A DNA stretch of 64,000 nt from an uncultured Bacilli bacterium (GTDB lineage: Bacteria > Bacillota_I > Bacilli_A > RF39 > UBA660), in assembly GCA_910579455.1 (NCBI GenBank), contig CAJTUT010000002.1, positions 44,353 through 108,352 on the forward strand. The letters run 5' to 3'. Made by a program: the position numbers and the translations under genes. The notes under the pieces are model-generated. The model was not told the DNA's origin. It did no database searches and was given only the letters and a program-made list of their open reading frames with translations. Of the stretch, positions 8,022 to 48,303 are shown in pieces (position 1 is the stretch's first letter; every line of letters starts with the position of its first letter).

Positions 8022-11000
8022 CTACTCCATAAATTCTAGAATACAATACTCATATCCTGTTTCTTCGTCAGTATAAAATCTTACTTCATATCCTGGTTCT
8101 ACCTCAGTTGTAGTCTCTGGTTTTGCATTTGTTGAACCGATGATCCTTCCATCATAATATTTAAATATACCATTCCCTTTTATTACACCAATTCCTGTTA
8201 CTGTAGCAGTTGCTTGTATTAGTGGATTTTCTATTGAGACATTAGCATAATTAGTACCAGATCCATCCTTTATCCCCATTATAACAGTACCACTATCTAT
8301 GTAAATACCGTAAGCCATTCTACCATGAACATCGATTCTTCCACTTTCTAGTTTTATGTTAGAATCACTATTCGATGAGTATATACCTGCTGAGGTAATA
8401 TTACGACCACTAAATACATTTGTGTTTTCCCTCAAATAAATATTCGTATTTTTTAACGTTAAATTGGCAGCTGCTTGTGTAGATATACCATAATTACTAG
8501 TAAAGTTTTCTATATTAAAATCTGTATTTTCTATATTAATATTAGAATTATCATTTATTACAATAGCTGTTGCATCAGCCGAATTTACTGTAGTATTAGA
8601 TGTAATAGCTACATTTTTTATAGATGCATCAGAACTCAATACTATACCCACATATTGAGTGATGTCACCATCACTTGATATCGAACCACCCTCTATATTT
8701 AGTTGACCTTTTCGATGACGTATTATTGGATCACTATCACTAGTACGATAGCTATATATAATATTTGTATTAAGCAAATTTAATATAGCATTTTGATTAT
8801 TATTATCGATAGTAGAGTACATAGTTCCCCCTTGGATTGTTAATTCTCCACTATTATTTACGATATCTCTATATCCAAAATAATAACCAGATACACGATA
8901 AGTATTATTCCGTAAAAGGGCTTCATGATCTTCAGAAGTTTGGTTATAAAATAGATAACCACCAGTTTTCTTATCACTTTTATTTAATGTTGAGTTGCTT
9001 ATCTTACAATTTGAATAATTATATATTCCCGATGATATTACATCTAAAGTTATATCATTCGCTACTAGATTTGCCCCTGCATAATTATGAATTCCTGAAT
9101 ATCCTTTAAATGATGTGCCATTAGCCTCTATACTTGCATTAGCAAAATTAGTAATTAGATAATAATTCGTCGTTAAATTTTCTAATAAAATATCCTCCAA
9201 AACTAAATTTCCTTTATTCGAAATGATAATTGAATTTGTACTAATACTTAACTTTCCTTGATCTGCATTATCCCTTATAGATAATGTTCCTTCATTCATT
9301 ATTGCCTGATTTAGTCTTAGATGATGCCCGTTTAAATCTAATGTAATATTTTTTCCAGCAGTATTAACTTCCTCAAATACCTTAGAATCTTTAATAATCG
9401 TCAACGTATCTCCATTCTGAGATTCTAGTACAGCTGTTTTTAAACTCTTATATTGCATCTCGCCATTTTGAACAAAATATTCTGTTGCTTTTAATGTATT
9501 TCTATGATACATGACCTCGTCAATAATTTGAGTATCATCATCAATTACATAATCATTTGGTATTTTAGAAATTGCCCCATAGTATCCAGCTATTTGCCCA
9601 GATAAAGCACCATCATAGAATGATATAGTTCCATTACCTCCATTATATAGTCCATATTGTTCTCCTATTACTTCTGGACTTTTCGTACTTACTTCATCAT
9701 CCTTATTTCCTAACACCAAATTTGCATTATTTTTTGTTTCTATTCCATATGTTTTTCCTACAATTTTTCCTCCATATACATTTAAGTTTCCATTATTCAT
9801 GATGATACCATCTCCCGATTGTCCTGTTATGGTTCCTTGATATATATTAATTGTGGCACTAGCACTTGAACTTACAAAAATTCCTTCAGAACCAGAGATT
9901 TCTCCATTATAAATATCTAGAGTTCCTCCATTTACAGTTATACGATTACTTATGTTTGGAACCTTTGTTGCATCTTCTGGATCTCCTATTACTGTATTTC
10001 CATAACTACTAATTGATCCATAGCTTCCACTTTTTATTGTTATGTTTGCTCGTTCATGTGCTGAAGGATTTACCCTATAAATATTTGAATTCTCTATTGT
10101 CACATTTGCATTATTGCTAGCTGTAACTCCACCTCTATCAATTTCTACTCCTGTAATATTGACTGTTTTACCTGTTGCTATAGAAATAGTCGTGTCATGT
10201 TTACTATAAGAACTATAACTACCTCCTGTAATATCTATATCAGTTGCAATATACAATACTCTAGCACCATTGGCTGCACTATACGTTCCTCCTGTAATTT
10301 TTCCTTTTCCTGATAGATAAATTACACTTGCTCTTTCTGTTGTTTTTATCGTTCCTGAATTTACTGTTAAATCATTTGTTGACTTGATTGCATATTCACC
10401 ACTTACTACTGATGTGTTAGTATAGGATCCTGTAGCTTCTACACTACTATCTAATATTCTCAATTTTCCTTCATTTGTAATCATTTTTGAGTTTACAAGT
10501 TGCTTTCCACCCAAATCGATGGTTATTTCTTTTCCATTTGGTATTAATACTTCTTCTGCTATTGATACAGACTCAATTACTTCTATAGTACCTTCTGTAT
10601 CTATCGCATCAAGGGCTTTCTTGAAAGTATTATACTCTTCATCTCCTACCTTTAAGAAGTTTGTCATTTTTCCTAAATATGATGTGCTATATAGGATTCC
10701 ATCGACAGTTTCTTCACCTGTTTCTATACCATATCCATCAAGAAGTGTCGTAATTACTCCTGCATGTCCTGCAGTTGTTCCTTTTAATATTCCGTCATAG
10801 AATGATATAGTTCCATTACCTCCACTATATAGTCCATATTGTTCTCCTATTACTTCTGGACTTTTCGTACTTACTTCATCATCCTTATTTCCTAACACCA
10901 AATTTGCATTATTTTTTGTTTCTATTCCATATGTTTTTCCTACAATTTTTCCTCCATATACATTTAAGTTTCCATTATTCATGATGATACCATCTCCCGA

Positions 11001-14000
11001 TTGTCCTGTTATGGTTCCTTGATATATATTAATTGTGGCACTAGCACTTGAACTTACAAAAATTCCTTCAGAACCAGAGATTTCTCCATTATAAATATCT
11101 AGAGTTCCTCCATTTACAGTTATACCATTATATTTACTGATTATAGAAGGAAGTTTAGACTTATCATTTGCATCACCTATATTTACACGACCATTAGAGG
11201 TAAGCGCTGTAGACACCGATTCATAGTTTCCCTCTATCACATTAAGTATACCACTATTATTGGATATACAATATCTCCCTTTATAGGTTCCATTTTTAAT
11301 CACTAAATTACCTTTACCATTAATACTGTAATTCTGTACATCTATATTGGCATTATCTATGATTATTGTTCCGGAAGTATAAATACCGTTTTTACCTGTA
11401 GTAATGTTCACATCGACAATTTCTACATTTGCATCTGGTGACATTTTTATTGCGTAACTACCTGTCGATTGAAAATAACCACCATCAAGAATGAACTTGT
11501 CTGAACTAGATATATAAAGGGCATCACCTGAAATGGAATTAATATGAGAATTATTATCAATAGTTAATTCACCAGCATTTATATTTAACCCGTAACCACC
11601 TGTTGCATTAACATTTGAACGAATAATATTTAAATAACCACTGCTGTCTATTGTGTTTGTGTTTGTTGTCTGGCTTATAGTAATACCATCTAAACTTAAT
11701 GTAGCAGTGCTTTTGTTAGTTATTGTTTTAGATATTTTTAAGATTCCCTTTATTACACTACTATCTATTAATTTTAGATTTCCTGAATTGGTTACATCAT
11801 ATCCTGTTTCTACAGTGTAACCTGATACATCTATAATTACCTCTTTATTTTGGGCTAAATCAAGTGGATATGCTGCTTCGAAATCCCTTATTGCATAGAT
11901 CGTTCTATTTTTCTCAAAATCAGTATTCATATCTGTTATAAAGTCAATTGCATCTTGTAAATTAAAATAATAATTTGTACTAATAATTTCGTTACTATCC
12001 TCACTACTATAATTTACTGTTTTAGCTACTGCTCTTGTCAAGATTGAAGATGTCTCTTCTAAATATATTTTTTGATAACCATTACTATAATCGTGATCTG
12101 TAAACACTTCATATCCTTCTGGTTTGTTGTATACATAACCATCAAGTCCTAATTCTGCAGTTATTAATCCATCATAGAAATTCATTATTCCTTGCTGTTC
12201 TATTCCCTTTGTTGTTCCTTCTATACATGGATTATCCTTTAATACATCCCCATCATTTTCTCCTAAGGTTAATATAGAATGATTTACTATTGCCGTATTA
12301 GTTGTGTTCTTAATAGTACCATTGTTAAGAATTGTTAATGTACCATTATTTATTATTGTACTATCATTAACTCCTGTTACGGTTTTTCCATTCAAATCAA
12401 GAGTTATATCTTTTACATTTTCTACACTTTCTATTGTGTCTTTCAACATCACAATGGTATCGCCACTTTCTTTAGCAGCAGCCAATGCCTCTTCTAAACT
12501 TTTATAATATACCTTTTCTATTCTAGCAACAGCATCACTAGAACCTATTTCTGGTTTTTTTATGGTAATCGTATACTCCTTAGTTGCTGTAGAATAATTA
12601 TTAGTTGCTAAACAGGTCACTCGTATAGTTATTACAGTCCCAATAGCTAAATTGGAAAGATTTGATATTGTTACAGTTTTATCATCTAAAGTAACTTCCG
12701 CGTCAGTTTCCGTAACCTCTACTACACTAGTTTCTCCTCCATGTGAATCTACTATCATAAAAGAGTCACTATCTTGACCTTGATCAATGATTCTTTCATT
12801 AGAACTTAAATCAATATATCCCTGTGCACGTATAATGTCATAGGCCTTTCTATTATTATCTAATGTATAATTTTCAATACGTCCTCTTCCTCCTATAACA
12901 CTAGCTATAGAGACTTCTGATACATAACTACCTACATCAACTGCTTTTGACTGAATTAATTCTAATGCTTCGTTTTCTATTCGATCATTTAAACTATATT
13001 CATAATCTGGAGCTTGTCTTTCCCCATTATAAGAAAATTCAGTTGCCTCATCCCATGTAATATTCACCCTTTTAGGAGTGATAGTATGTGCAACACAACT
13101 TGATTGAAGAGGAAGACTCCCTTCCTTTCCTTCTAATACTGCTTTTACTGAATAATTACCTGCATCAATTGGAACAGATGACAACTCATTGCTACAATTT
13201 GTATCACTATAATATTGATAAGAAAGCTGTGAAGAATCTACACCTTCTGATACTTTTGCGTCATTTGCTTCTATTTCTCTACCAGTATATTCTTCAATTT
13301 TAGAATTTAAAGAGATACTTTCTGATCTTTTAAAAATTGCATATAGAGTCATATTCCCTGTAACAGTAGGAGGTGAGGTGAAACCGCTGGAAGAATCTTT
13401 ATTAGTGTGCCATCCTAAAAAGTCATATCCACTTTTTTTTGCAACTTCATCTAAATCAACAATATCCCCATATCTTAAAGTTTTATCTGGGATATTGCAA
13501 CTACCACCTGTTGTAGTACAATCATACTTTATCACATATTTTTTTTCTTTTGCCCTTGCAATTAGTTCCTTATTTCCATGAATTGTATACTCATCATTAG
13601 GATTTCCAATAACTGTATCATGATCATACCATTGACCACTAGCATAATGATCCCTACTTATAATATCTGGTAATGTCTTCGTACAATTATGACCCTCAAC
13701 AGTATAACGATCTCCATCCATTATTTGGTAGTTATCACACTGATCACTAGTAGATCCTATACTTTTAACAGACTCATCATCATTGGTATAAGAAACTTCC
13801 CATTTTCCTTTATATACCGCATAATACACTTCATTCTTTGTTGTAATGGAAGACTCAATATGACGATAATCAAATGGTCTAGTAGATAATCCATAATAAG
13901 TTCTATCATCCCCACCTTGTGATAAAAGAACCTCTTCTGGTACAGAAACTTCTTCTTCATTAATATGATAAGTCGCACTATCTTCATTTATTAACACAGA

Positions 14001-16196
14001 GTTAACCTTATTTGTTGAAAAAATGAACCTTTGTCCGTCGTTATAATAATAAAACTTAGTATCAATATTACCAGTATATACCGCATAATACACCTGATTA
14101 TTAGTAATGTTGGTATATATATCTTCCGTTTCCATATTGTTTAACTTAGAAGAAATTCCCTTATATGGTAGTCCCCTTAAGCCAATACTATTTACCACCT
14201 CATCAGAAGCTCTATAAGTACCCTTATTTTGATTATAAATTGTTTTATTTTCTGTTATAGATTCTACATTCCCATTATTATTATAATAGACCTTAATACT
14301 AATATCTTTTGAAGTAATTGCATAATATGTAGAATTATCAGATATCATTTTTTTTGTATTAATATCCCAGCTACCACTAGTATCGTTTTCATTTTGACTA
14401 AATCCTAGGATTTTATATCCTTCTCTTTCTATAGAAGGAGAAGATATTTCACAACTGGTAGCTTCTCCCCAAATCTCACAACTTTTAGTAGTAGAATCTA
14501 ATTGACTACCATTAGCAGAAAAGGTAACAGTTACTTCCTTATATACATTTACTGTAATATCAATCATAGATGAAGTAGCTGTATCTGTGACTGTTATAGT
14601 CGTAGTTCCAACAGAAACCCCCTGAATCACTCCATTCTTATCTACTGTTGCAATACCAGAATTACTACTCGCATATGATAAAGTACCCGTATTGTTGCTA
14701 ATATCCGCTTTTTTGGATTGCCCAACCTTTAAATTAATCTCATCGTCAGAAGAAGAAATATCACCAATTTTTTTTACTTCTATTTTTTTACTTACTACAT
14801 TATGGTTGGTATCATATACCCATAAATAATAAGTACCACTACTAGGAACCACGAATTCTTTATCATATTGATTCGTTACCTCCTCCAATTTAGTATAATT
14901 AGAAGTAGTTGGCATTTTATTATGATTACTTAAATAATAACCACCTATATTTCCCTCTTTTGCCATGATATGAACTGGAATATAGTACTTGTTATCCTTT
15001 CTGGTAATTGTCTCAGTAGTAATTTCAATACTTCCCTTAGGAATGATATGAACAACTCTAACAACACTATTAGTATTTCCCTTACTATCAATAACAATAT
15101 ACTTAACTGTATAAACCCCTTCAACAAAAGAGTTTACAGTTCCAACGGTAATGATCTTATCTGTCAAGACACCATCTTCTATATCCTCAGCACTAGCACC
15201 TAAATCTTGATAGGTTTCACCCTTTTTCAATTCTAAATTTGATTCCCCTACTAAATCAATAGTAGGAATGTGGTCATCAGAAGTAGGATTAACACTAACA
15301 CTTACAACTGTACACCCAATATTTCCATTTTTATCACTAACTCTATAATAAATATAGTAAATTCCTAATTTAGAAGGGTCCACATTATCAACGGTCATAG
15401 TATTTACTCCATCATAATATTCATATGTCTTAGTAACATTAGAAATATCAATACTCTGACCTGAACTATCCTTAATTTCATATGGAACAGGATCCGTAAA
15501 AGAATCATTCAAAGAGATATGAATAGACGTATTTGGAATGTTAATTACAGGGGCAACAAGATCATTAGCAGCACCGTTACTTTGTACAGCACTCACAACA
15601 ATTCTAGCGGCGTATGTTTTTCCTTGAACACTATTGTCAGCGTCCTCTCGTAGCCACATCTTAAGTTCATAATCTACCTCATCTTTTCCAGATTCTGCAC
15701 TTAAACTACCGCTGTTTAAAAGTAAACCATCAGCAAGAGATCTTGGACTTGTCCAACTCCCATCACTTAATTTAATACTATAATTAATATATTTTCTATC
15801 TAAAGTATTAGAAGATGCTGGAGTTTCTTCTAAACTAACATGATATTTAGCATCAATAGTTCCTGTATTTTTTATGGTAAAATGATAACCATCTGTACTC
15901 ATTCCTTCACTATCACTCATAGGTGCTAAGTTAGTCAAATGAATTTCATTTCCCTCCTCAAACTCAACCTTAAACGTTCCAGCCACAACTTCATGCTCAC
16001 TAGTATTATCAATTAAAACTTTAAATAATCCGTAGCTAGTGCCAATGACAGAAATTAATAAAAACATTACTAAAATAGCAATCTTTTTATATTCCCTTTT
16101 ATTCTTCCTTTTTAAATTATCATTATTGATTTCCACAGTTCTAAAACGATCACCAATTCTACCTTTATGAAAACTTTTTTTATTTTTGTTACTCAT
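8022..16196 (-). CDS. giant (2724 aa) secreted/surface multi-domain protein: N-terminal TasA/camelysin-like domain, 2x DUF5011 Ig-like, Big_2, Flg_new (Listeria-Bacteroides) repeats, >=4 parallel beta-helix modules
   Basis: One uninterrupted ORF. N-terminus: basic tail, TM, then IGTSYGLFKV...EVVAGTFKVEF..LTNLAPMSDSEG..FTIKNTGTIDAKY (TasA/CalY-like). Two DUF5011-like domains (DHIPTIDLVGESNLELKKGETYQDLGASAEDIEDGVLTD). Big_2 (TLSYASSNSGIATVDKNGVIQGVSVGTTTITV). Flg_new repeats (TVTFSANGSQLDS...EGYKILGF; KYVIKYDC...SGYDFLGWH). Recurrent beta-helix entry motifs (SLEEALAAAKESGDTIVMLKD...ITLDLNGKTV; GDTLTIIKDSK...ITLDLNGHHL) and Gly-rich G..I.N.G.L.I rungs. No C-terminal LPXTG. Confidence 0.8.
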   Translation of the reverse strand: MSNKNKKSFHKGRIGDRFRTVEINNDNLKRKNKREYKKIAILVMFLLISVIGTSYGLFKVLIDNTSEHEVVAGTFKVEFEEGNEIHLTNLAPMSDSEGMSTDGYHFTIKNTGTIDAKYHVSLEETPASSNTLDRKYINYSIKLSDGSWTSPRSLADGLLLNSGSLSAESGKDEVDYELKMWLREDADNSVQGKTYAARIVVSAVQSNGAANDLVAPVINIPNTSIHISLNDSFTDPVPYEIKDSSGQSIDISNVTKTYEYYDGVNTMTVDNVDPSKLGIYYIYYRVSDKNGNIGCTVVSVSVNPTSDDHIPTIDLVGESNLELKKGETYQDLGASAEDIEDGVLTDKIITVGTVNSFVEGVYTVKYIVIDSKGNTNSVVRVVHIIPKGSIEITTETITRKDNKYYIPVHIMAKEGNIGGYYLSNHNKMPTTSNYTKLEEVTNQYDKEFVVPSSGTYYLWVYDTNHNVVSKKIEVKKIGDISSSDDEINLKVGQSKKADISNNTGTLSYASSNSGIATVDKNGVIQGVSVGTTTITVTDTATSSMIDITVNVYKEVTVTFSANGSQLDSTTKSCEIWGEATSCEISSPSIEREGYKILGFSQNENDTSGSWDINTKKMISDNSTYYAITSKDISIKVYYNNNGNVESITENKTIYNQNKGTYRASDEVVNSIGLRGLPYKGISSKLNNMETEDIYTNITNNQVYYAVYTGNIDTKFYYYNDGQRFIFSTNKVNSVLINEDSATYHINEEEVSVPEEVLLSQGGDDRTYYGLSTRPFDYRHIESSITTKNEVYYAVYKGKWEVSYTNDDESVKSIGSTSDQCDNYQIMDGDRYTVEGHNCTKTLPDIISRDHYASGQWYDHDTVIGNPNDEYTIHGNKELIARAKEKKYVIKYDCTTTGGSCNIPDKTLRYGDIVDLDEVAKKSGYDFLGWHTNKDSSSGFTSPPTVTGNMTLYAIFKRSESISLNSKIEEYTGREIEANDAKVSEGVDSSQLSYQYYSDTNCSNELSSVPIDAGNYSVKAVLEGKEGSLPLQSSCVAHTITPKRVNITWDEATEFSYNGERQAPDYEYSLNDRIENEALELIQSKAVDVGSYVSEVSIASVIGGRGRIENYTLDNNRKAYDIIRAQGYIDLSSNERIIDQGQDSDSFMIVDSHGGETSVVEVTETDAEVTLDDKTVTISNLSNLAIGTVITIRVTCLATNNYSTATKEYTITIKKPEIGSSDAVARIEKVYYKSLEEALAAAKESGDTIVMLKDTIESVENVKDITLDLNGKTVTGVNDSTIINNGTLTILNNGTIKNTTNTAIVNHSILTLGENDGDVLKDNPCIEGTTKGIEQQGIMNFYDGLITAELGLDGYVYNKPEGYEVFTDHDYSNGYQKIYLEETSSILTRAVAKTVNYSSEDSNEIISTNYYFNLQDAIDFITDMNTDFEKNRTIYAIRDFEAAYPLDLAQNKEVIIDVSGYTVETGYDVTNSGNLKLIDSSVIKGILKISKTITNKSTATLSLDGITISQTTNTNTIDSSGYLNIIRSNVNATGGYGLNINAGELTIDNNSHINSISGDALYISSSDKFILDGGYFQSTGSYAIKMSPDANVEIVDVNITTGKNGIYTSGTIIIDNANIDVQNYSINGKGNLVIKNGTYKGRYCISNNSGILNVIEGNYESVSTALTSNGRVNIGDANDKSKLPSIISKYNGITVNGGTLDIYNGEISGSEGIFVSSSASATINIYQGTITGQSGDGIIMNNGNLNVYGGKIVGKTYGIETKNNANLVLGNKDDEVSTKSPEVIGEQYGLYSGGNGTISFYDGILKGTTAGHAGVITTLLDGYGIETGEETVDGILYSTSYLGKMTNFLKVGDEEYNTFKKALDAIDTEGTIEVIESVSIAEEVLIPNGKEITIDLGGKQLVNSKMITNEGKLRILDSSVEATGSYTNTSVVSGEYAIKSTNDLTVNSGTIKTTERASVIYLSGKGKITGGTYSAANGARVLYIATDIDITGGSYSSYSKHDTTISIATGKTVNITGVEIDRGGVTASNNANVTIENSNIYRVNPSAHERANITIKSGSYGSISSYGNTVIGDPEDATKVPNISNRITVNGGTLDIYNGEISGSEGIFVSSSASATINIYQGTITGQSGDGIIMNNGNLNVYGGKIVGKTYGIETKNNANLVLGNKDDEVSTKSPEVIGEQYGLYNGGNGTISFYDGALSGQIAGYYGAISKIPNDYVIDDDTQIIDEVMYHRNTLKATEYFVQNGEMQYKSLKTAVLESQNGDTLTIIKDSKVFEEVNTAGKNITLDLNGHHLRLNQAIMNEGTLSIRDNADQGKLSISTNSIIISNKGNLVLEDILLENLTTNYYLITNFANASIEANGTSFKGYSGIHNYAGANLVANDITLDVISSGIYNYSNCKISNSTLNKSDKKTGGYLFYNQTSEDHEALLRNNTYRVSGYYFGYRDIVNNSGELTIQGGTMYSTIDNNNQNAILNLLNTNIIYSYRTSDSDPIIRHRKGQLNIEGGSISSDGDITQYVGIVLSSDASIKNVAITSNTTVNSADATAIVINDNSNINIENTDFNIENFTSNYGISTQAAANLTLKNTNIYLRENTNVFSGRNITSAGIYSSNSDSNIKLESGRIDVHGRMAYGIYIDSGTVIMGIKDGSGTNYANVSIENPLIQATATVTGIGVIKGNGIFKYYDGRIIGSTNAKPETTTEVEPGYEVRFYTDEETGYEYCILEFME
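9613..9943. repeat. 331-bp intragenic direct repeat, copy A (about 99.7% identical to 10795..11125)
   Basis: Direct comparison of the sequence: 9613-9943 and 10795-11125 (offset 1182 bp) differ at a single position. Both encode ...EQYGLY(S/N)GGNGTISFYDG / ITVNGGTLDIYNGEISGSEGIFVSSSASATINIYQGTITGQSGDGIIMNNGNLNVYGGKIVGKTYGIETKNNANLVLGNKDDEVSTKSPEVIG. Confidence 0.9.
10795..11125. repeat. 331-bp intragenic direct repeat, copy B
   Basis: See copy A. Flanking sequence diverges immediately (9944 g versus 11126 c). Confidence 0.9.
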
Positions 16197-36959: not shown

Positions 36960-37859
36960 CTAATCATCTTTCTTAGCCCTAGGGAAACTACTATAGTATA
37001 CTTCTTTTAATCTATCCGTAGTAATATGAGTATACACTTGTGTGGCACTAATACTCTCATGCCCTAGAAGTTTTTGAACACTCAACAAATCACACCCCTC
37101 ATTTAATAGATGGGTTGCGAAAGAATGACGCAACATATGAGGAGATATATTTTTAGTTAAGGAGGTTTCTTTTATTAACTGATTTAAGATATATCGAACT
37201 CCCCTCTCACTAAGTTTTCCTCCTAAATGATTTAAAAATAAATAATCATTTGAACCTTTTAGCAATTCTTGCCTACCATCTTTCACATATCTTTTTAATA
37301 TTTCCTCACAGTAGTCACCATATTCTACCATTCTTTCCTTATTACCTTTACCACAAATAATAATCTTTCTATCTAGTTGATTAATATCTTTTATCTTAAT
37401 ATTAACAAGCTCTCCGACCCTAACACCTGTTGCATACAACATTTCTAAAATTAATAAATCTCTTTGCCCCAGTGCCCTATTAGTATCAGGAACCAAAAAT
37501 AACTCCTCCAATTCATTATACTCAAAATATCTTGGCAATTTTTTTTCCCTTTTTAAGCCATTAAGTAATAAAAAAACATTATTCTTAATAATTCCCTTAT
37601 TAGATAAATATTTATAAAAACCTCTTAAAGCACTTAGTTTTCTATTAATAGAAGAATTGTTATCCTTCTTTTGTTCTTTTAGATACATTAGGTATAGTCT
37701 TGTATCACTGTACTCTATATTTAAATAACCAATAGATTCCTGATTACAAAAATTTACAAATTCTATAAGATCATCCTCGTAGTTCTTGATCGTATATTTA
37801 GAATATGCCTTTTGGTACTCCAAATATTCCAAATAATTCTTTACATAATCATCTCTCAT
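36960..37859 (-). CDS. xerC: site-specific tyrosine recombinase XerC/XerD family
   Basis: Catalytic R..HxxR..Y: ATGVRVGEL, HMLRHSFATHLL, LLGHESISATQVYTH (Y nucleophile). The position downstream of topA matches codV/xerC of Bacillus. Confidence 0.8.
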   Translation of the reverse strand: MRDDYVKNYLEYLEYQKAYSKYTIKNYEDDLIEFVNFCNQESIGYLNIEYSDTRLYLMYLKEQKKDNNSSINRKLSALRGFYKYLSNKGIIKNNVFLLLNGLKREKKLPRYFEYNELEELFLVPDTNRALGQRDLLILEMLYATGVRVGELVNIKIKDINQLDRKIIICGKGNKERMVEYGDYCEEILKRYVKDGRQELLKGSNDYLFLNHLGGKLSERGVRYILNQLIKETSLTKNISPHMLRHSFATHLLNEGCDLLSVQKLLGHESISATQVYTHITTDRLKEVYYSSFPRAKKDD

Positions 37860-37918: not shown

Positions 37919-39088
37919 CTAAAGTTTCCTTTTCATATGATTTTTCGGTAAAATTCCTAATAACACAGCATCATTACTAGATCCTAATATTTCATCTAAA
38001 TCCATTTGTTCCATTACTTCTCCAACACCACCATCGGTAAATAGGTCAGATATTCTTTCACTTTCAAAACTAATAATGGATGAAGTCATTGATAAATTGC
38101 TATAATATTCATCCTCCTCGTCAATACCAAATAAATCCCTGTTATAAAAATCTTTATTATTTCTTTGCTCCTTAGCCAAATCTAGTCTTTTCATTTGCAA
38201 TAAAATAATAGATTTCCTCTTCTGAGATAGTTGGTCCTTATTTAGACATGAACACAAAACTTGTCTATACTGGCCTTCCCACTCAATCATTTTCCTTAAA
38301 TTCCTATAATCTTCTCTAAAAAAAGAATGAATTCTATGATTGATTTCTCTTAATTCCCTTTCTATATCTAAAGTAGATAGATTCTTATAATATAAATCAT
38401 AATACATCTCCTGCATTGATACGTAATTTTCTAATAATGTTCTTAATCCTTGGTATTTAAAACTACTAGATTCCTCTTCTGCATTTGATTTATCTAATAA
38501 TATATCTGTTGTTAATTTTTCTCTCTCGTCAAAATTCAAGTATCCTATTTTTTTCGGATTTAGAATAAAATATCTAGTAGTCTTGTTAAAGGCAAGAGAT
38601 TTAATGAATTGGATATAGGTCCCTAGTCTCGCTGAATTTTCAGTTAAAACTTTTCGTTTATTATGGATTATTTTTTTTTGGTTTCTAAGACTAATAGCCT
38701 GCTCTAAAAGCAATAGGTCATTAAATATGAGAGGACATTCTTTTGTCTTACCATTTTGTCTATAGGCTAACGTTAGATGTGAGTAAGCCTGCTCTTTATC
38801 CGATAAGTAAGAAATATTATGTTTCTTTAATTCAAGAATAAAGTCCTTCTCGCTTTTATACCCACAAGTCAAAGAATCAATTTCCTCTATTTTAAAATTA
38901 TCCTTAAGCTTTCCATATAAAGAAAACTTAATTGGGGTTGCAGCATCATAGGAACATTTTTCACGATCTCTTTTTTCCTTTGGAAAACTAGCCAAACGAT
39001 CTCGATTTTGAATCGTTTTAATATCATTTAAATACAATCGATATGCCACTTTTACGCCTCCTTTATATAACGCTATTATACCACACAT
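37919..39088 (-). CDS. hypothetical protein (occupies the position of trmFO/gid but is not TrmFO)
   Basis: 389 aa with no FAD-binding GxGxxG; an acidic C-terminal tail (EEDEYY..., DLDEILGSSNDA). It starts MCGII, but the rest does not resemble Ntn amidotransferases. Confidence 0.5.
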   Translation of the reverse strand: MCGIIALYKGGVKVAYRLYLNDIKTIQNRDRLASFPKEKRDREKCSYDAATPIKFSLYGKLKDNFKIEEIDSLTCGYKSEKDFILELKKHNISYLSDKEQAYSHLTLAYRQNGKTKECPLIFNDLLLLEQAISLRNQKKIIHNKRKVLTENSARLGTYIQFIKSLAFNKTTRYFILNPKKIGYLNFDEREKLTTDILLDKSNAEEESSSFKYQGLRTLLENYVSMQEMYYDLYYKNLSTLDIERELREINHRIHSFFREDYRNLRKMIEWEGQYRQVLCSCLNKDQLSQKRKSIILLQMKRLDLAKEQRNNKDFYNRDLFGIDEEDEYYSNLSMTSSIISFESERISDLFTDGGVGEVMEQMDLDEILGSSNDAVLLGILPKNHMKRKL

Positions 39089-39103
39089 AATAAAAGAGAG
39101 AAA

Positions 39104-41131
39104 CTATTTTTCTCTCTCATAACTACATTTACTGCACTTTATCTTATCCTTCTTTTCAACCAAAATCTCCTCACATTCTGGACACTTCTCACCAGTTGGC
39201 TTATCCCAAGATGCAAATTTACATTTTGGATACTGGTTACATCCATAAAATACCTTACCACGCCTTGTAGCCTTTTCTATAACTCTTCCATCACAAAGTG
39301 GGCAATCCATAATTTCATGAATTTCCTTTTCCTCTTTTTTTACATGTTTGCACTCTGGATAATTACTACAAGCAACAAAATCGCCATATCTCCCCTTACG
39401 AATAACCAAAGGATTCCCGCATTCTGAACATATTTCCCCAGTCTCTACCGGAGCCTTTTTCTCCATTTCATCAAAGGCATTCTTGACTCTAGGTTCAAAC
39501 AATTTATAAAATGCCTCCAATACATGATTCCAAACCAAATTTCCTAATGCTATTTTGTCTAGATCATCCTCCATATTCTTCGTATATTCCACATTAATTA
39601 AGTCAGAAAAGAACTCTTGTAACTTATCTGTTGTCTCAATTCCTACCTCGGTAGGCTTAAACTTTTTTTCAACTAATTCTACATAGCCTCTTTCTTTAAT
39701 TGTATCCATAGTTTTTGCATAGGTAGAGGGTCTACCAATCCCTAACTCTTCCATCTCCTTAATTAGCTTTGCTTCTGTATATCTTGCAGGAGGTTTCGTA
39801 AAATGTTGCTCTTTTTCTACAATTTCTGTAGTTAATACCTCGTTTTCATGAATTTCTGGTAAAATTTTATCCTCGCTAGACTCATAATCTTTATATACTC
39901 TTAAATATCCATCAAAAATCAGAACTTGACCATTCACTTTAAATTTATAATCATGATTATCCAGTATAATTGTTGTTTGATTTACCTTAGCATCAGCCAT
40001 TAACGAAGCCAGTGCCCTTTTATAAATTAAACTATATAATTTAAATTCATCATTTGATAAATACCTTTTCACCTGAATTGGCTCTCTAAAAATACTAGTT
40101 GGTCTTATTGCTTCATGTGCATCTTGAACATTTTCTGTTTTCTTACTTTGTTTGATATACCCAACATAATCCTTACCATAATTTTCTATAATATATTGAT
40201 AGGCTGGCTTTGTAAAGTCCTCGCTTAATCTTGTAGAATCTGTTCTCATATACGTAATTAAACCTACTGTCTCATTCTCCAAATCAATACCCTCATATAA
40301 TTTTTGGGCAATACTCATAGTCTTTTTAGCTGAAAATCCCAATTTGGTAGAGGCCTCTTGCTGCAAGGTACTAGTAATAAAAGGAAATCTACTTTTTTTA
40401 CTTCTTTTTTTCTGCTCAATTTTCTCTACTAGATAATTTTTATCCAATTGTTCCAACACATGATCGCAATCTTGTTCACAGATGAGTTCAATATCTTCAT
40501 TTTGATATTTAAATAAATTAGCATCAAATGAATCAAATTTTGAAGTGATCGTCCAATACTCTTCTGGAATAAAGGCCTCAATATCTCTTTCCCTATCTAC
40601 AATTAATTTTAAGGCAACACTTTGAACACGTCCAGCTGACTTAGCACCTATTTTAGATTGTAAAAGTTTAGAAAGTCTGAATCCAATAATTCGATCCAAA
40701 ATTCTCCTTGTTTCTTGACTCCTAACTAAATGGTCATCAATCAAAGTGGGATGGTTAATAGCTTCAATTACCTTATCATGAGTAATTTCATTAAATAATA
40801 CCCTCTTATATTGATCATCAGGGATCCCTAAAGCATCTTTTAAATGCCAGGCAATGGCCTCCCCCTCACGATCTGGATCTGATGCAAGGTATACAATATC
40901 ACTATCCTTTACATCCTTTTTTAATTCCGTAATAATCCTCTTTTTTCCGGTAATTGGAACATAACTCGGTTGAAATCCATTTTCAATATCTACCCCTAAT
41001 CCAAATTTTCCAGAAGTGGCCAAATCTCTAATATGACCTTTAGAAGATACTACTTTAAAATCATTTCCTAAGTATTTCTCAATAGTCTTACTCTTACTGG
41101 GACTCTCCACTATCACTAAATGTTTACTCAT
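39104..41131 (-). CDS. topA: DNA topoisomerase I
   Basis: Toprim (KHLVIVESPSKSKTIEKYLG), active-site region (GFSAKKTMSIAQKLYEG, YMRTDSTR) and C-terminal C4 zinc ribbons (CSECGNPL...CSNYPEC; CPLCDG...CNQYPKC; CPEC...CSKC). The start at ATG 41131 has the RBS GAAGGA; the track start at 41182 is less likely. Confidence 0.9.
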   Translation of the reverse strand: MSKHLVIVESPSKSKTIEKYLGNDFKVVSSKGHIRDLATSGKFGLGVDIENGFQPSYVPITGKKRIITELKKDVKDSDIVYLASDPDREGEAIAWHLKDALGIPDDQYKRVLFNEITHDKVIEAINHPTLIDDHLVRSQETRRILDRIIGFRLSKLLQSKIGAKSAGRVQSVALKLIVDRERDIEAFIPEEYWTITSKFDSFDANLFKYQNEDIELICEQDCDHVLEQLDKNYLVEKIEQKKRSKKSRFPFITSTLQQEASTKLGFSAKKTMSIAQKLYEGIDLENETVGLITYMRTDSTRLSEDFTKPAYQYIIENYGKDYVGYIKQSKKTENVQDAHEAIRPTSIFREPIQVKRYLSNDEFKLYSLIYKRALASLMADAKVNQTTIILDNHDYKFKVNGQVLIFDGYLRVYKDYESSEDKILPEIHENEVLTTEIVEKEQHFTKPPARYTEAKLIKEMEELGIGRPSTYAKTMDTIKERGYVELVEKKFKPTEVGIETTDKLQEFFSDLINVEYTKNMEDDLDKIALGNLVWNHVLEAFYKLFEPRVKNAFDEMEKKAPVETGEICSECGNPLVIRKGRYGDFVACSNYPECKHVKKEEKEIHEIMDCPLCDGRVIEKATRRGKVFYGCNQYPKCKFASWDKPTGEKCPECEEILVEKKDKIKCSKCSYEREK

Positions 41132-41690
41132 GAAAACACATCCTTCTTTTATACTTATACAGATTAAATCTATTTTTGTCAATTATATTTTATACATCCT
41201 ACTATTATTATAGTATGTTTATCTCTTTTTTATCTTTAGTTTTCAATTAAATTTATCCGTTATAAATATTATAATTATATTCCTTCTCAGTATTTTTACT
41301 CAAGTAACAAATAGCAATTTTTTCTTTATATCACTTTTTGATGGTCAAACGTCTCTATACTCAATTCTGGTTTAGTAAACCTCTGTAATTTCCTTTCTTA
41401 ACTGATATAAATATATAATAGCTTTGCCAGTTGATGACAATGGCAAATGAGACAGGAAATTAACATACGAATCCGTATCATTAAATAAATAATTAAATAT
41501 AGTAGATAAATTAATTAATTTATATTCAACCTAATATAACTTTTAAGAGTTGTTCATGCGATATATCTGTATAAAAATAATAAAGTGCCATTTTTAATAA
41601 CAAATAGTAATCAATACAAAATTGTTTTATATAACTACCACTCTCAAATAGTAATATTTTTCCATAATCAAAGAAACATTCTACTATTGG

Positions 41691-42430
41691 TTAGGGCAAC
41701 CTAAATGTATCAAGCAAAGTCTGTTTTAATGAATCTATACTTTTTTGAAAAATCTTTCTTCCCTCTTTTTCATCAAAGAGTAGTTTGATTTCATTGATAT
41801 CAACTCTTGTGATTTTCCCATAATTTATACCGAAATTCATCAACTCCTCTATTGATAAAATTCCTTCATTAATCATAACTTTTCCCCTAAAACTTTACAT
41901 ATTATAATCAAAGATTAACGAAATGTCGATCTTTATCACTTGCCTTTATATGCTTTAAAAAAATGTTTTAGTGTATCATAAGAACCAAATAATTTTTCTA
42001 ACCTACCTGTAATATCCCCCCTACTAGAAATATCACTAAAAAGGAGTAAAGACTATAATTTAATTGGTTAAAATTTTAGAAACGTAATTCTTCTGTAGAT
42101 AAGTCATAGCAGGGATGAAACATGTCTATATCACTCATTTCTATTCTTGCCTTGGTTAAAAGTTCCAAATCAGCTTCCAAATTGCTAACATTCTCTAATA
42201 ATAAAGGAATAGGCATCTCTAAAATAGATCCATCCTTTTTGGAGACAATAACCTCATTTTGTAAGCAGCACAAACAGAATACATATCACTATCTTCTGTA
42301 CTATCTTTAATCTTAAATATATCAAGTGCTTGTAATATATTTTTTTAGGGCAGCTTTCTCATCTTATAATAAGAAGCTGGGTCCAGTGAAAAAACTTTAC
42401 TATCATAAAAAAATCTTTATGGCATAATCA
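41691..42430 (-). pseudogene. possible remnant of dprA/smf (DNA processing protein A), decayed
   Basis: A 1.4-kb stretch without an intact gene lies between rnhB and topA, where dprA normally sits in Bacillota. The short ORFs 42076..42273 (LLENVSNLEADLELL...) and 41691..41876 (SIEELMNFGINYGKITRVDINEIKLLFDEKEGRKIF) faintly resemble the DprA C-terminal region and its winged-helix domain, respectively. Inference only. Confidence 0.25.
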
Positions 42431-42560
42431 CCATTATCAGATTCGTATTTCCAAACACTAAAATTTACCCCATTTCCTAAATAAAATAAATCCTTCTATT
42501 CCTCCGATGGGGCTGTATTATAACATATAAAGATCTAAAACACAAGATAAAAGTTAAGCT

Positions 42561-43541
42561 TTATAACCCTTGTTTCTGTATATAATCACTTATTGGCTTA
42601 TAACTTTTTCTATGATCATCCAAAATGCCATATTTCTCAATTGCCTCTAAGTGTTTTTTAGTAGGATACCCCTTATTATTTTTAAAATCATACATTGGAT
42701 ATTTTTTATCTAACTCTAGCAGCATTCTATCCCTTTCTACTTTTGCAATTACACTAGCAGCAGATATAGTAATACTCTTTAAATCCCCCTTAATAATAGA
42801 AGTAGTTGGAATATTTACATTTAATGGCATAGCATCAATTAAAATGTGTTCCGGTTTAATATTGCAATTACTAATCGCTTCTTTCATTGCAAGCTTCGTA
42901 GCCTCATAAATATTGATTTCATCAATTTTCTTCTCATCAATAATTCCAACACCAATAGAGATAGCCTGTTTTTTAATTTTTTCATAAAATTGTTCTCTTT
43001 TTTTCTCACTTAGTTTTTTAGAATCTGTCAATCCCTCTAAATCAAATTTATCAGGCAAAATCACACAGGCAGCAACAACTGGACCCACTAATGGTCCACG
43101 CCCTACCTCGTCTACCCCTGCAATAAGACTAATTCCCTGCCCTTTTAATTTTTTCTCATATCGATAATTATCCTTACTACACAAGTATAAATCTAATCTT
43201 TCAATTATTTTTTTATCCTGCTTTCTATTTAATCTTCGTTTTATCTCTAAACATTTTTCTATATTCATACATTGATATCCATCAACATAAGTCATATCTT
43301 TTGGATAGTATAAATGATCACTGATTTCTATCGCATCATGATACTTATGTCCTAATAAAAATGCTCTTATTTTGGTATTCCAAGGAATTTGATTATAGAA
43401 TTTTGTACTACAACTTAAATCAATATTTAATGTTTTTTCTATGATCCCTTGTAAGACTAAACTAGCATCGCTAATTACAATATAAGAATTTTTATCTAGT
43501 TCTAATTCACTTAGAGCATTCAATATTTCTTCCTTATTCAT
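42561..43541 (-). CDS. rnhB: ribonuclease HII with an ~140-aa N-terminal extension
   Basis: The C-terminal 185 aa are a canonical RNase HII: [21 protein letters not shown] (DEDD motif 1), [14 protein letters not shown]..., [11 protein letters not shown]. The N-terminal 140 aa ([20 protein letters not shown]...) have no recognisable motif. It follows rbgA, as in B. subtilis ylqF-rnhB. Confidence 0.8.
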
Positions 43542-43558
43542 TATTTCACCTTATCTAT

Positions 43559-44449
43559 TTATGTTAATCTATCTAGTGTAATATTTCCTAAATACCCATT
43601 TTTTAAATCATTAATAATAATATTTGATACTTTATCATAATCAGCTATTCCACCACGAGACAAGGCACCCCTCGATTTTCCAATCATATCAAATGTTTCT
43701 ATCAAATCCTCATCTAACTTTTGAATGCCATAACGCCTTTCTAACTCTTGTGGGTATAACTCTATCATTTTTTTTAAGATAAAACAAGCAAGATCGAGAT
43801 TATCGATTACTTCTTCTTTTATAGAAGAAAGTGCTGCTAGTATATGTGCATTGTCTTGATTTTCCAACTTAGGCCAAAGTATTCCTGGAGAATCTAAAAG
43901 TTCTATCTCTTTATTAATTCTTATCCACGAAAGATTTTTAGTAATACCCGGCCTATTTCCAACACTTGCTGATTTTTTTCCTACCAAACGATTAATAAGT
44001 GTTGATTTTCCTACATTAGGCACCCCAATAATCAAGACCCTAACACTTCTAGATTTAAGACCCTTCTCCAGCCTTTTTCTATTTTCATTTGCAACCATTT
44101 CTTTACTTTTTTCTATAATTTTTGATGTATCATTTCCATTCATTAAATCTACTGGTATTACAGTATAATTTTTATCTTCATAATATTTAATTATTTTATC
44201 TGTTTCAAACTTATCACAAATATCATATTTTGTCATAATGAGTACTCTTTTTTTATTTCCTATCAACTCATCCATATCTACTATTTTAGAAGATATAGGC
44301 ATACGGGAATCAATTACTTCATAAACTATATCAATTAGATTTAGTTTTTCTTTTATTTCTCTTTTGGTTTTGGCCATATGTCCTGGATACCAGTTGATTA
44401 CACTTTTTTGTAACCCCCCCTGTGTTTCATTATTGTTCATTAAAATCAC
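43559..44449 (-). CDS. rbgA: ribosome biogenesis GTPase A (RbgA/YlqF)
   Basis: Circularly permuted GTPase: NWYPGHMAKT, G4 TKYD, G1 GVPNVGKSTLINRL, G3 DSPGILWP; 296 aa. Confidence 0.85.
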   Translation of the reverse strand: MILMNNNETQGGLQKSVINWYPGHMAKTKREIKEKLNLIDIVYEVIDSRMPISSKIVDMDELIGNKKRVLIMTKYDICDKFETDKIIKYYEDKNYTVIPVDLMNGNDTSKIIEKSKEMVANENRKRLEKGLKSRSVRVLIIGVPNVGKSTLINRLVGKKSASVGNRPGITKNLSWIRINKEIELLDSPGILWPKLENQDNAHILAALSSIKEEVIDNLDLACFILKKMIELYPQELERRYGIQKLDEDLIETFDMIGKSRGALSRGGIADYDKVSNIIINDLKNGYLGNITLDRLT

Positions 44450-45233
44450 TTCTTTCTACTTTGTTGCTTATAAAAATATTCATTATATTTCTTATATCTT
44501 CCATTCTTATCTTTGTTTCTAAATCATTGTAATTAAATCTATCTATTAATATGTTAATATAATTATTACTCTTAACAATTTTATAAGTTTCTTTAAAATT
44601 TAAATCAAATATAAATGCTAAAACACAACACCAATAATCAATAAGTGTTATTCTGTCATGAATATCTACACATTTTTGATTTTTAATTGTTTTATAGACT
44701 TTATCAGACAATGTTGAATTTTCCATATCACTTTTGTATTTTAGTTTTCCTGGAAATATTGCTTCTATTTTTTCTTCTTTCTTTACTCTAAAATTATCTA
44801 ACTTATCTGCATCTCTTATTATTTTTGAATGTAAGAGGCATCTTTCATTTAAGCCTTCTTTAATAGTTAATCTACTATGATTATCAATTGCTGTTTTTAT
44901 TATTTCATCATAGCTATCATCTTCTATAAAGTTTCTTATCAAATTATCATCAAATAACATTTTAACACCATATGAGGCATGATCGAATTTAACACTATCA
45001 AATTGTTTTAAGAAAATAATTTCTTCAAACCTTCCAATATCGTGAAGTAAGGCAATTAATTCCGCCAAATATATATCTTCTTCAGATAAATTTAATTTGG
45101 TTGCTATTTCTTTAGCATTCTCAACAACATGATATGTATGAATCACTTTTAATTCAAAGCCCAATTGATTTTTATCTTTGTATCTTTCTAAAAATATTTT
45201 GAATGAATTTCTAGCTTTTTGTATATCAATCAT
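44430..45233 (-). CDS. HD-domain phosphohydrolase family protein
   Basis: H...HD signature: VIHTYHVVENA ... LIALLHDIGRFEE ... DNHS; 267 aa; overlaps the rbgA start by 20 bp. Confidence 0.6.
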   Translation of the reverse strand: MIDIQKARNSFKIFLERYKDKNQLGFELKVIHTYHVVENAKEIATKLNLSEEDIYLAELIALLHDIGRFEEIIFLKQFDSVKFDHASYGVKMLFDDNLIRNFIEDDSYDEIIKTAIDNHSRLTIKEGLNERCLLHSKIIRDADKLDNFRVKKEEKIEAIFPGKLKYKSDMENSTLSDKVYKTIKNQKCVDIHDRITLIDYWCCVLAFIFDLNFKETYKIVKSNNYINILIDRFNYNDLETKIRMEDIRNIMNIFISNKVERSDFNEQ

Positions 45234-45612: not shown

Positions 45613-46623
45613 TTATTCATCAATTTCTTTTTCATCTAAATCTATATGAAGATTAATATCTTCTTCTGTAGGTAATTTTTCTAATATATCTTTAGGTATA
45701 TATTTCTCTATTTCGTATGACGACACACCGATTGGTACATTAGTACTTTCTAAAGACCATTCCACAGATAACTTGTCTTTTTCTCTACAAAGCAAAAGAC
45801 CTATTGTAGGTTTATCATATTCTTTTTTTAAAATATTATCTACTGCTTTAACATAAAAACCTAATTGTCCTATATAATCCGGCTTAAATGCACTAGCCTT
45901 CAACTCTACAACTATATAGCATCTTAATTCCAAATGATAAAATAAAAGATCAATATAATAATCACTTTCAGGAGTAGATACTTTGTATTGATTTCCAACA
46001 AAACTAAAACCTGTCCCAAGTTCTAATAAAACATTCCTAATCTTCATAAGCATAGCATTTTCTAATTCTTGTTCTTTATAGTCATCTTTTAGTGTAATGA
46101 AATCAAAAATATAAGGATCTTTTATTGTGCTATTTACTAAATCACTATCATATAAAGATTTTTTAAAATTGTTACTACTATTTCCTATCCTAAGATGATA
46201 ATTATTATCTATTTGAAGCGCTAACATATTTCTTCCCCAACCATTTTTTATAATTTCATTGGCATAAAGTTCTCTAATTTTTCTATCCTTTATTTTGCTA
46301 ATTAATAGTAAATTATGTCCCCAAGGTAATTTGGCAACAAGCTGTTGCCATTTTTCATCATCACAATATTCTTCATAAAATAAACACATAGATCTTATAT
46401 TTCTTTCAGAAAATCCTTTCATATTCGGAAAAGCTAATTTTAATTCTATCGATACCTCTTTTACAAAATTATTACCATACTTTTTATTTTCAGAAACAAT
46501 TTTACCCAATTTAAAATAAAGCATAATTAAGTTACTATTCACTTCTTGAATTGTTTTAATCTGAGCTTTCTTTATTTCATCTTTTATATTATTTATAGTT
46601 TCTTTCATATTTTTATCTAACAA
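45613..46623 (-). CDS. PDDEXK-nuclease-fold protein, YhcG/DUF1016 family
   Basis: 336 aa. The N-terminal DUF1016-like region (IMLYFKLGKIVSENKKYGNNFVKEVSIELK, PWGHNLLLISKIKD) is followed by a C-terminal restriction-endonuclease-like core (YIDLLFYHLELRCYIVVELK, D...E.K). Confidence 0.6.
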   Translation of the reverse strand: MLDKNMKETINNIKDEIKKAQIKTIQEVNSNLIMLYFKLGKIVSENKKYGNNFVKEVSIELKLAFPNMKGFSERNIRSMCLFYEEYCDDEKWQQLVAKLPWGHNLLLISKIKDRKIRELYANEIIKNGWGRNMLALQIDNNYHLRIGNSSNNFKKSLYDSDLVNSTIKDPYIFDFITLKDDYKEQELENAMLMKIRNVLLELGTGFSFVGNQYKVSTPESDYYIDLLFYHLELRCYIVVELKASAFKPDYIGQLGFYVKAVDNILKKEYDKPTIGLLLCREKDKLSVEWSLESTNVPIGVSSYEIEKYIPKDILEKLPTEEDINLHIDLDEKEIDE

Positions 46624-46881: not shown

Positions 46882-47422
46882 CTATTTCCCTTTTATCATT
46901 TCTACTACTTGAATATGTATTCTTCCATTAGTAACTAACAAAGTGTCAATATTTTGTCTTTTCATACCTTTTAAATTAGTAACTTTTCCACCCGCTTCTT
47001 GTACTAATAATTTACCAGCAGCTGAACTTAATCCAATACTTGGTTTAACATTTAATACCCCATCTATTTTACCAGAAGCACACCATGCTAATTCTAATGC
47101 AGCAGATACTATCAATCTTAACCCTCTAACATTTGGCACTAACTTTTCTTCTACATCTATCACATCTTTAATTTGCATATCATTATAATGCGATGTTAAA
47201 CAAAAGGAGATTTTCTCCATTTTCTTCAGAATAGATAGAATGTTCAGGAAATTTATGACTTATAAATTCTATTATTCTATCATCTATATATTTATCTGTA
47301 GAAGTAACTATATCATTTAATTCTTTGTAAGAAATTTCATTTTTTAAATTTTTACTTTCTTCATATGCCTGAATTGTAATAGTCGATAATTCCTTTAATA
47401 AATCAAAATTAAAATCACTCAT
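46882..47422 (-). pseudogene. inositol monophosphatase family gene, frameshifted/truncated
   Basis: ORF 47183..47422 (…NDIVTSTDKYIDDRIIEFISHKFPEHSIYSEENGEN) matches the IMPase N-terminal region. The overlapping ORF 46882..47220, in another frame (…IVSAALELAWCASGKIDGVLNVKPSIGLSSAAGKLLVQEAGGKVTN), matches the IMPase C-terminus. Together these give ~190 aa against ~260 expected, and the metal-binding DPIDGT block appears to be missing. Confidence 0.5.
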
Positions 47423-47904: not shown

Positions 47905-48303
47905 TTACACGAGATAATCCTCTTGATAATCCCATAAACTTAATCTTCCTTTAATCGGAATCGAACTAATTTTCCTTATATTTTCTATTTTAAATCCATA
48001 TCCTTTCCATTCTTTGCATTTAATGACACCACTATAGATAATTTTATCCTTCTCTAATAACTTTTTTCTAAAGTTATTATCAACTTCTACGCAGTCAGTT
48101 ATATTTCCTTTAGCAATAATACAACCAGTTGGATATTCTAAATTTAGATATTCAAACTTCTTCATTGCTTTCTTATCTATACTTTTACCTGCATGAATTA
48201 ATATTTCACCACGATATTTAGTTTTCCAAGTTCTAAATTCATATTCTTTTAAACCTTCTGCTATTAATGTTGCCCATGGCTGCTTAACTGTTATCGCTTT
48301 CAT
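47905..48303 (-). CDS. ASCH domain protein
   Basis: 132 aa; MKAITVKQPWATLIAEGLKEYEFRTWKTKYRGEILIHAG is typical of the ASCH/PUA-like fold. Confidence 0.6.
   Translation of the reverse strand: MKAITVKQPWATLIAEGLKEYEFRTWKTKYRGEILIHAGKSIDKKAMKKFEYLNLEYPTGCIIAKGNITDCVEVDNNFRKKLLEKDKIIYSGVIKCKEWKGYGFKIENIRKISSIPIKGRLSLWDYQEDYLV

Follow-up and report, generated by a model that had tools for sequence, protein, structure and literature searches.

In a 64,000-nucleotide stretch of DNA from an uncultured Bacilli bacterium (assembly GCA_910579455.1, contig CAJTUT010000002.1, positions 44,353 to 108,352; hereafter the window), the series rbgA–rnhB–topA–xerC contains a gap of about 1.4 kb between rnhB and topA and an open reading frame (ORF), here called X, between topA and xerC. 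It is highly probable that the gap, a slot whose content varies across the clade, holds two lineage-specific genes in a decayed state and nothing that comes from dprA, and that X is a functional orphan gene linked to xerC across the clade. The slot would once have held genes for a 267-amino acid (aa) kinase-like protein (p267) and a 482-aa protein (p482), both of them since inactivated. An earlier reading of this DNA from its letters alone (the sequence-only reading) had seen in the gap a decayed dprA. That claim was not borne out: the gap holds remnants of p267 and p482, which are intact in a sister species. The locus is a case of ordinary gene turnover in a reduced lineage, and it illustrates that, where a conserved position looks empty, close relatives ought to be consulted before the slot is taken for the ruin of a gene known from a model organism.

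Intact p267 and p482 genes are present between rnhB and topA in the sister-species loci L082, L083 and L084, which were reached via the X homologue P0003 (78% identity). Using the intact proteins of L082 as tblastn queries, both genes were recognized in the gap, where the following features were located:

41939-42495, minus strand: p267 pseudogene, matching aa 44-215 and 232-267 of intact p267 (L082:3476-4279).
42076-42273, minus strand: short ORF of 65 aa, inside the p267 pseudogene.
41901-41929, minus strand: putative promoter-like site TCGACA-17-TATAAT (11/12, consensus scan), upstream of the p482 remnant.
41535-41876, minus strand: p482 pseudogene, codons 1-114 (query L082:4339-5787; 67% identity over 114 aa, E=5e-49).
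41691-41876, minus strand: short ORF of 61 aa, inside the p482 pseudogene.
41132-41534, minus strand: AT-rich spacer upstream of topA (22.8% GC, GC scan), with a promoter-like site at 41303-41274.

After correction of its frameshifts, the p267 remnant aligns with aa 46-267 of the intact protein at 50% identity (E=1e-66), and its nucleotide identity to L082 is 72-79%. It has lost the first ~43 codons and carries at least three frameshifts, two in-frame stops and a 19-codon (57-nt) deletion that takes out the DxKxxN catalytic-loop motif, so that homology to its orphan family (P0086-P0088) is present and an intact frame with the MxDxKxxN...YISDIDMF block is absent. The p482 remnant is interrupted by an in-frame TAA at codon 62, and codons 115-482 (~1.15 kb) are deleted, including the C-terminal NQSGAAYIM region conserved in its ~460-510-aa family (L082, L002, L003, L005 and L010); the ~500-aa homologues of L002, L003 and L005 likewise align with the gap, in the region of the 61-aa ORF. 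On either side of the stop, the p482 remnant has a dN/dS of 0.26, and therefore most of its divergence arose while the gene was functional; by the same measure, the 61-aa ORF shows no sign of separate maintenance. Altogether, homology to p267 and p482 explains ~900 of the 1,430 bp of the gap, and both short ORFs are fragments of these two wrecks. As a candidate source of the first remnant, a 190-240-aa family found in the upstream slot of other relatives was tested and rejected.

The closest relative (locus L081), which comes from a different sample and whose X is 87% identical to that of the window, has wholly lost both p267 and p482 and retains 780 bp between rnhB and topA. The loci thereby form a graded series in which both genes are intact (L082-L084), both wrecked (the window) or both gone (L081). 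Along such a path, the kinase-like gene would have lost its 5' end and catalytic loop and gained frameshifts and stops, and in the 482-aa gene a stop would have arisen at codon 62 and the final ~370 codons would have been deleted.

The window is part of a metagenome-assembled genome (MAG), and it must be held against this reading that small frameshifts could be assembly errors. Indeed, p267 and p482 could be intact in the organism and broken only by errors of assembly or sequencing, and the sole other copy, contig JAAVYZ010000055.1 of MAG GCA_022791375.1 ('Bacilli bacterium'), is 100% identical to the window over at least 13 kb and so provides no independent assembly. Nevertheless, the ~1.15-kb deletion in p482, the 57-nt in-frame deletion in p267 and its missing 5' end are not homopolymer-type errors and cannot be explained in this way, and L081 shows a still fuller loss in a different sample. 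We therefore regard an artefact of this kind as very improbable.

The limits and composition of the gap bear on a second alternative. The longest topA ORF (39104-41182) begins with a TTG at 41182 and encodes 692 aa, but public gene calls of 675 aa and the alignment of homologues make ATG 41131 (MSKHLVIVESP...) the most likely start; the rnhB–topA gap is therefore 41132-42560. Its longest ORF has 65 aa, and its GC content is 26.6%, against a window mean of 29.3% and a 5th percentile of 25.2% for windows of equal size. The sequence-only description of an AT-rich 1.4-kb stretch with only two short ORFs thus holds for the ORFs (65 and 61 aa), but AT-richness is mild overall and clear solely in the last 400 bp before topA (22.8% GC). 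These traits, together with the promoter-like sites, the lack of a long ORF and the lack of any Rfam family at gathering score in the gap and its spacer (one tRNA was the only Rfam match in the whole window), would suit ordinary intergenic or regulatory DNA for topA that was never coding and whose short ORFs arose by chance. However, protein homology to intact genes that occupy this position in a sister species (E=1e-66 and 5e-49), as well as the dN/dS of the p482 remnant, which points to a coding past, make this explanation extremely improbable for the gap as a whole. It is contradicted for 41535-42495, and it may hold for 41132-41534, where ~340 bp (41183-41523) are common only to L081 (blastn, 83% identity) and L082 matches just the last 49 bp.

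The idea of a decayed dprA, and with it of a recent loss of natural transformation in the window genome, comes from position: Bacillus, staphylococci and streptococci have dprA directly upstream of topA, and the gap occupies the equivalent place. The faint DprA resemblance that had been noticed in the short ORFs could not be recovered. The three stop-masked minus-strand frames of 41183-42560 contain no DprA domain (Pfam, E<=10), their only match being a weak one to the kinase-like FTA2 family (E=0.005-0.017), and the two short ORFs taken separately match no Pfam family. Similarly, E. coli Smf finds no tblastn match at E<=1 in the window and 85 related loci (1.2 Mb in total, also used for the MnmG query below). 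Given that ~900 of the 1,430 bp match p267 and p482, and that dprA is found in the slot in none of 80 related loci, a dprA origin has a negligible probability. More broadly, neither dprA nor trmFO was detected in the 64-kb window, using Pfam on nearly all ORFs of at least 120 aa and tblastn with MnmG and E. coli Smf.

These 80 loci were obtained from a TopA scan with one genome per GTDB species (TopA identity 72-93%). With few exceptions, they are MAGs of uncultured gut bacteria under the labels Bacilli, Mollicutes, Tenericutes or Erysipelotrichaceae, and they include a closed 1.5-Mb chromosome (OZ006970.1, locus L080) and 'Mycoplasma sp. CAG:877' (77% TopA identity). Since CAG-877 is placed by GTDB in the order RF39 (PMC8035907), we refer to the clade of these small-genome gut Bacilli as RF39-like. 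None of the 80 TopA-anchored loci has dprA or trmFO at the Bacillus-type position, which is consequently a clade-wide state and not an event in the window genome. About half of the loci lack an ORF of at least 90 aa between rnhB and topA, which in most such cases are separated by ~20-110 bp. According to clustering and Pfam, the remaining loci have one or two unrelated genes there, such as a 190-240-aa orphan family, a 211-aa family, a GNAT acetyltransferase with a DHHA1 protein, 540-590-aa ORFs on the opposite strand or a ~500-aa orphan. The rnhB–topA interval is a variable slot in which accessory genes are gained and lost within the clade.

This variability, together with the very narrow distribution of p267 (3 homologues among 5.8 billion proteins) and its kinase-like motifs, could also indicate a mobile accessory module made up of p267 and p482, such as a toxin or defence pair based on a kinase, which is being purged from an integration hot spot. 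However, PADLOC, PHROGs and NCBIfam returned nothing meaningful for X, p267, p482 and the other slot occupants, and tblastn searches of phage genomes with p511 and with the reconstructed remnant found no match. In addition, p482 is present without p267 in L002, L003 and L005, showing that the pair is not obligate, and the slot has no flanking integrase, repeats or tRNA. A mobile module is thus unlikely, although its probability is clearly higher than that of the alternatives above.

Regarding the nature of p267, the alignment of its homologues shows the conserved motifs YLGxGxNSxxWKY, YAxKIF, MxDxKxxN and YISDIDMF, which align with the glycine loop, the VAIK lysine, the HxDxKxxN loop and the DFG motif of kinases. 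The top matches of its profile in the PDB are all protein kinases, starting with DYRK2 (E=0.016, marginal) and followed by PRP4, TBK1 and IKK-beta, and one homologue has a precomputed Pfam match to FTA2. A glycine-rich loop (GNGxNSxxW), a beta3-type lysine (AxKI), a DxKxxN loop and an (S)D(I)D at the DFG position are ordered and spaced as in eukaryotic-like protein kinases; unlike those kinases, p267 has just 267 aa, marginal E-values and no Pkinase Pfam match, and in the window copy, a pseudogene, the catalytic loop is gone. We consider that p267 is probably a minimal kinase-like protein, as judged from motifs with marginal statistics. This marginality counts against the assignment, as does an AF2 model that is unusable (pLDDT 46, from 3 sequences). 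Single-sequence PDB searches of p267 and p482 gave noise only, and neither protein has a Pfam, NCBIfam, PHROG or PADLOC match from which a function could be assigned. The p267 family is a modest lead, being narrowly distributed, minimal and kinase-like.

On the other side of topA, the features are the following:

39094-39118, minus strand: terminator-like hairpin overlapping the topA stop (terminator scan and sequence reading).
37919-39049, minus strand: X, 376 aa, with a GTG start at 39049 (MAYRLY...) from the alignment of homologues and a ribosome-binding site (AAGGAGG) 8 nt upstream.
36960-37859, minus strand: xerC-type tyrosine recombinase (Pfam Phage_integrase 2e-43, Phage_int_SAM_1 1.2e-19).

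The sequence-only reading had described here a 389-aa protein with an MCGII start, an acidic tail and no FAD-binding motif. The absence of a FAD/GIDA Pfam domain and the acidic stretch near the C-terminus were confirmed, but neither the length nor the start was: all X homologues start with MAYRLY, the NCBI annotation likewise gives 376 aa, and ATG 39088, from which 'MCGII' is read, sits in the T-tail of the hairpin, upstream of the ribosome-binding site. The 389-aa ORF (37919-39088) is over-called and 'MCGII' is not part of X. A class-II (Ntn) glutamine amidotransferase, as this start might suggest, was rejected on the same grounds of start position and homologue alignment and because there is no Pfam match.

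Located past the topA terminator and equipped with a ribosome-binding site of its own, X is a functional 376-aa gene. Purifying selection acts on it, with dN/dS values of 0.24 and 0.12 against two relatives (0.04-0.17 for its neighbours), and the window copy has the features of its family, namely the MAYRLY N-terminus, EEID, (D)YRNLR and the D, Y and R positions that are invariant in the alignments. An exhaustive search with a hidden Markov model (HMM) of 1.84 billion representatives retrieved 72 matches, all of ~300-390 aa, and a profile re-search with 59 X members in a 5.8-billion-protein database added one protein. The AF2 model of X (pLDDT 88, pTM 0.77) shows a small alpha/beta N-domain and helical bundles. 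Nevertheless, X has no Pfam, NCBIfam, PHROG or PADLOC match by which a function could be assigned, its profile has 0 matches among PDB sequences at E<=10, and its model matches no PDB fold, including none of Rossmann type. The family is a clade-restricted orphan.

Throughout the clade, xerC is normally preceded by X. Among the 68 loci with xerC, the family HMM places X between topA and xerC in 60, and X overlaps xerC by 4 nt in 11 loci (mechanical longest-ORF calls). The proposed gain of an unknown gene in this position does not correspond to a recent insertion, X being the usual neighbour of xerC across the clade. In L080, X and xerC abut (the X end, 3299, is the xerC start) and are located 4 kb upstream of rnhB–topA; the pair moved together, and therefore the linkage is to xerC and not to topA. 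In the same locus (L080:2481-4180), where the pair is upstream rather than downstream of rnhB–topA, a sortase-domain protein follows topA. Three tandem X paralogues of 322, 344 and 395 aa are found between topA and xerC in L036 (2354-5654). Furthermore, an extra small orphan ORF is present between topA and X in L017, L022, L029 and L031 (~180-200 aa) and in L039, L043, L045 and L049 (~205-212 aa), representing two separate families without Pfam match; they were considered as split X domains, which was rejected since they are unrelated to X by HMM.

Position also underlies the possibility that X represents a strongly diverged TrmFO or stands in for it functionally, i.e., as a new type of tRNA m5U54 methyltransferase, and the place of X in the slot held by trmFO in Bacillus is all that favours it. 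That the trmFO position holds a protein unrelated to TrmFO, as the sequence-only reading had it, agrees with our results: X has no GIDA/FAD domain, tblastn with the paralogue MnmG was empty in the window and the loci, the confident AF2 model has no Rossmann-type match, and X moves with xerC and not with topA. Moreover, loss of m5U54 is common in reduced relatives, TrmFO homologues being found in only 12 of 39 Mollicutes (PMC7226160), and therefore a loss of TrmFO here would be unsurprising. We give next to no credence to a TrmFO-like role. The window resembles those Mollicutes as a small-genome, low-GC relative within the Bacilli in which trmFO is gone from its ancestral syntenic position (PMC7226160); it differs in belonging to the RF39-like lineage and in having the slot re-occupied, and the absence is read here at the scope of the locus and the 64-kb window. 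That this neighbourhood lacks dprA and trmFO would be an ancient condition of the whole clade, of the kind typical of reduced Bacilli and Mollicutes-like genomes.

In Bacillus and Staphylococcus, the corresponding neighbourhood is dprA(smf)–topA–trmFO(gid)–xerC(codV). The window shares with it topA followed by xerC on the same strand, rbgA–rnhB upstream and a gene-sized slot on each side of topA. In contrast, neither dprA nor trmFO is present in the window and the 80 related loci, where the upstream slot is variable or empty and the downstream slot holds an unrelated, xerC-linked orphan. In addition, hslVU and codY come after xerC in the Bacillus-type arrangement, whereas a ComN-like post-transcriptional regulator, then secDF and relA, follow it in the window.

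As the adjacency of the two genes suggests, X could be a functional partner of the Xer recombinase, for instance an accessory or regulatory one during chromosome dimer resolution, and would have no part in tRNA methylation. Accessory factors are known in Xer recombination, such as the FtsK gamma domain and PepA, ArgR and ArcA at plasmid sites. The likeness of X to these factors is one of idea only, that of a non-recombinase protein genetically tied to a Xer recombinase; X has no sequence or fold similarity to any solved structure, and its tie is one of gene adjacency alone. Several observations weigh against a partnership. The conserved adjacency and one relocation event are the whole of the evidence for a functional link. 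In five relatives, topA and xerC are at most 104 bp apart without X, and therefore X is dispensable. In the window itself, 59 bp that include a promoter-like site separate X from xerC, and therefore their co-transcription here is uncertain. Consequently, that X is a lineage-specific Xer partner, accessory or regulatory in chromosome dimer resolution, perhaps replacing FtsK-type control and with a fold that lacks a solved counterpart, is a tentative proposal that we consider improbable as a whole. Nonetheless, this clade-wide, xerC-linked family with a confident predicted structure and no known relatives is a modest lead, and X is a candidate, and a tractable one, for a new accessory factor of Xer recombination in a gut lineage that is common although uncultured.

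The remaining genes of the neighbourhood were identified from the ORF listing and Pfam:

44430-45233, minus strand: HD-domain protein.
43559-44449, minus strand: rbgA (ribosome biogenesis GTPase A / YlqF; Pfam MMR_HSR1 1.5e-20, RsgA_GTPase).
42561-43541, minus strand: rnhB (RNase HII), 326-aa ORF (Pfam RNase_HII 4e-43 at aa 141-315; NCBIfam ribonuclease HII 5.6e-92).
39104-41131, minus strand: topA (DNA topoisomerase I), 675 aa from ATG 41131 (Pfam Topoisom_bac 1.8e-125, Toprim, Zn_ribbon_Top1).

The genes rbgA, rnhB and topA, the 37919-39088 ORF and xerC are all on the minus strand in that order, in agreement with the arrangement that had been proposed, including the position of the gap, and the diagnostic Pfam/NCBIfam domains of RbgA, RNase HII, TopA and XerC exceed curated cut-offs. 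rbgA is syntenic with rnhB in 65 of the 80 related loci. The locus is the conserved core backbone rbgA–rnhB–topA–xerC–(ComN-like regulator)–secDF–relA of a small-genome gut Bacilli lineage.

The RNase HII of the window has an N-terminal extension of ~100-140 aa without Pfam match. Across the clade (loci L001-L080), rnhB ORFs fall into two size groups, ~205-250 aa and ~310-357 aa, and the NCBI annotation of the identical contig gives rnhB just 244 aa.

The region upstream of rbgA varies among relatives, with a serine recombinase in L083. In the window, a YhcG-type PDDEXK nuclease (DUF1016) is encoded at 45613-46623, just upstream of the rbgA block. A 132-aa ORF (47905-48303) has the same position as two ASCH-domain genes in L082, a likeness of position only. 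Between them, two adjoining short minus-strand ORFs of 79 and 112 aa (46882-47422) resemble, from their translations read by eye, the N- and C-terminal parts of an inositol-monophosphatase/SuhB-type protein, and this pair may be another split or decayed gene. Further away, a protein of 2,724 aa (8022-16196), a considerable size given the reduced genome, has Ig-like, Big_2 and Listeria-Bacteroides repeat domains and is probably a surface protein; it is adjoined by a 309-aa protein with an Ig-like domain (6275-7204).

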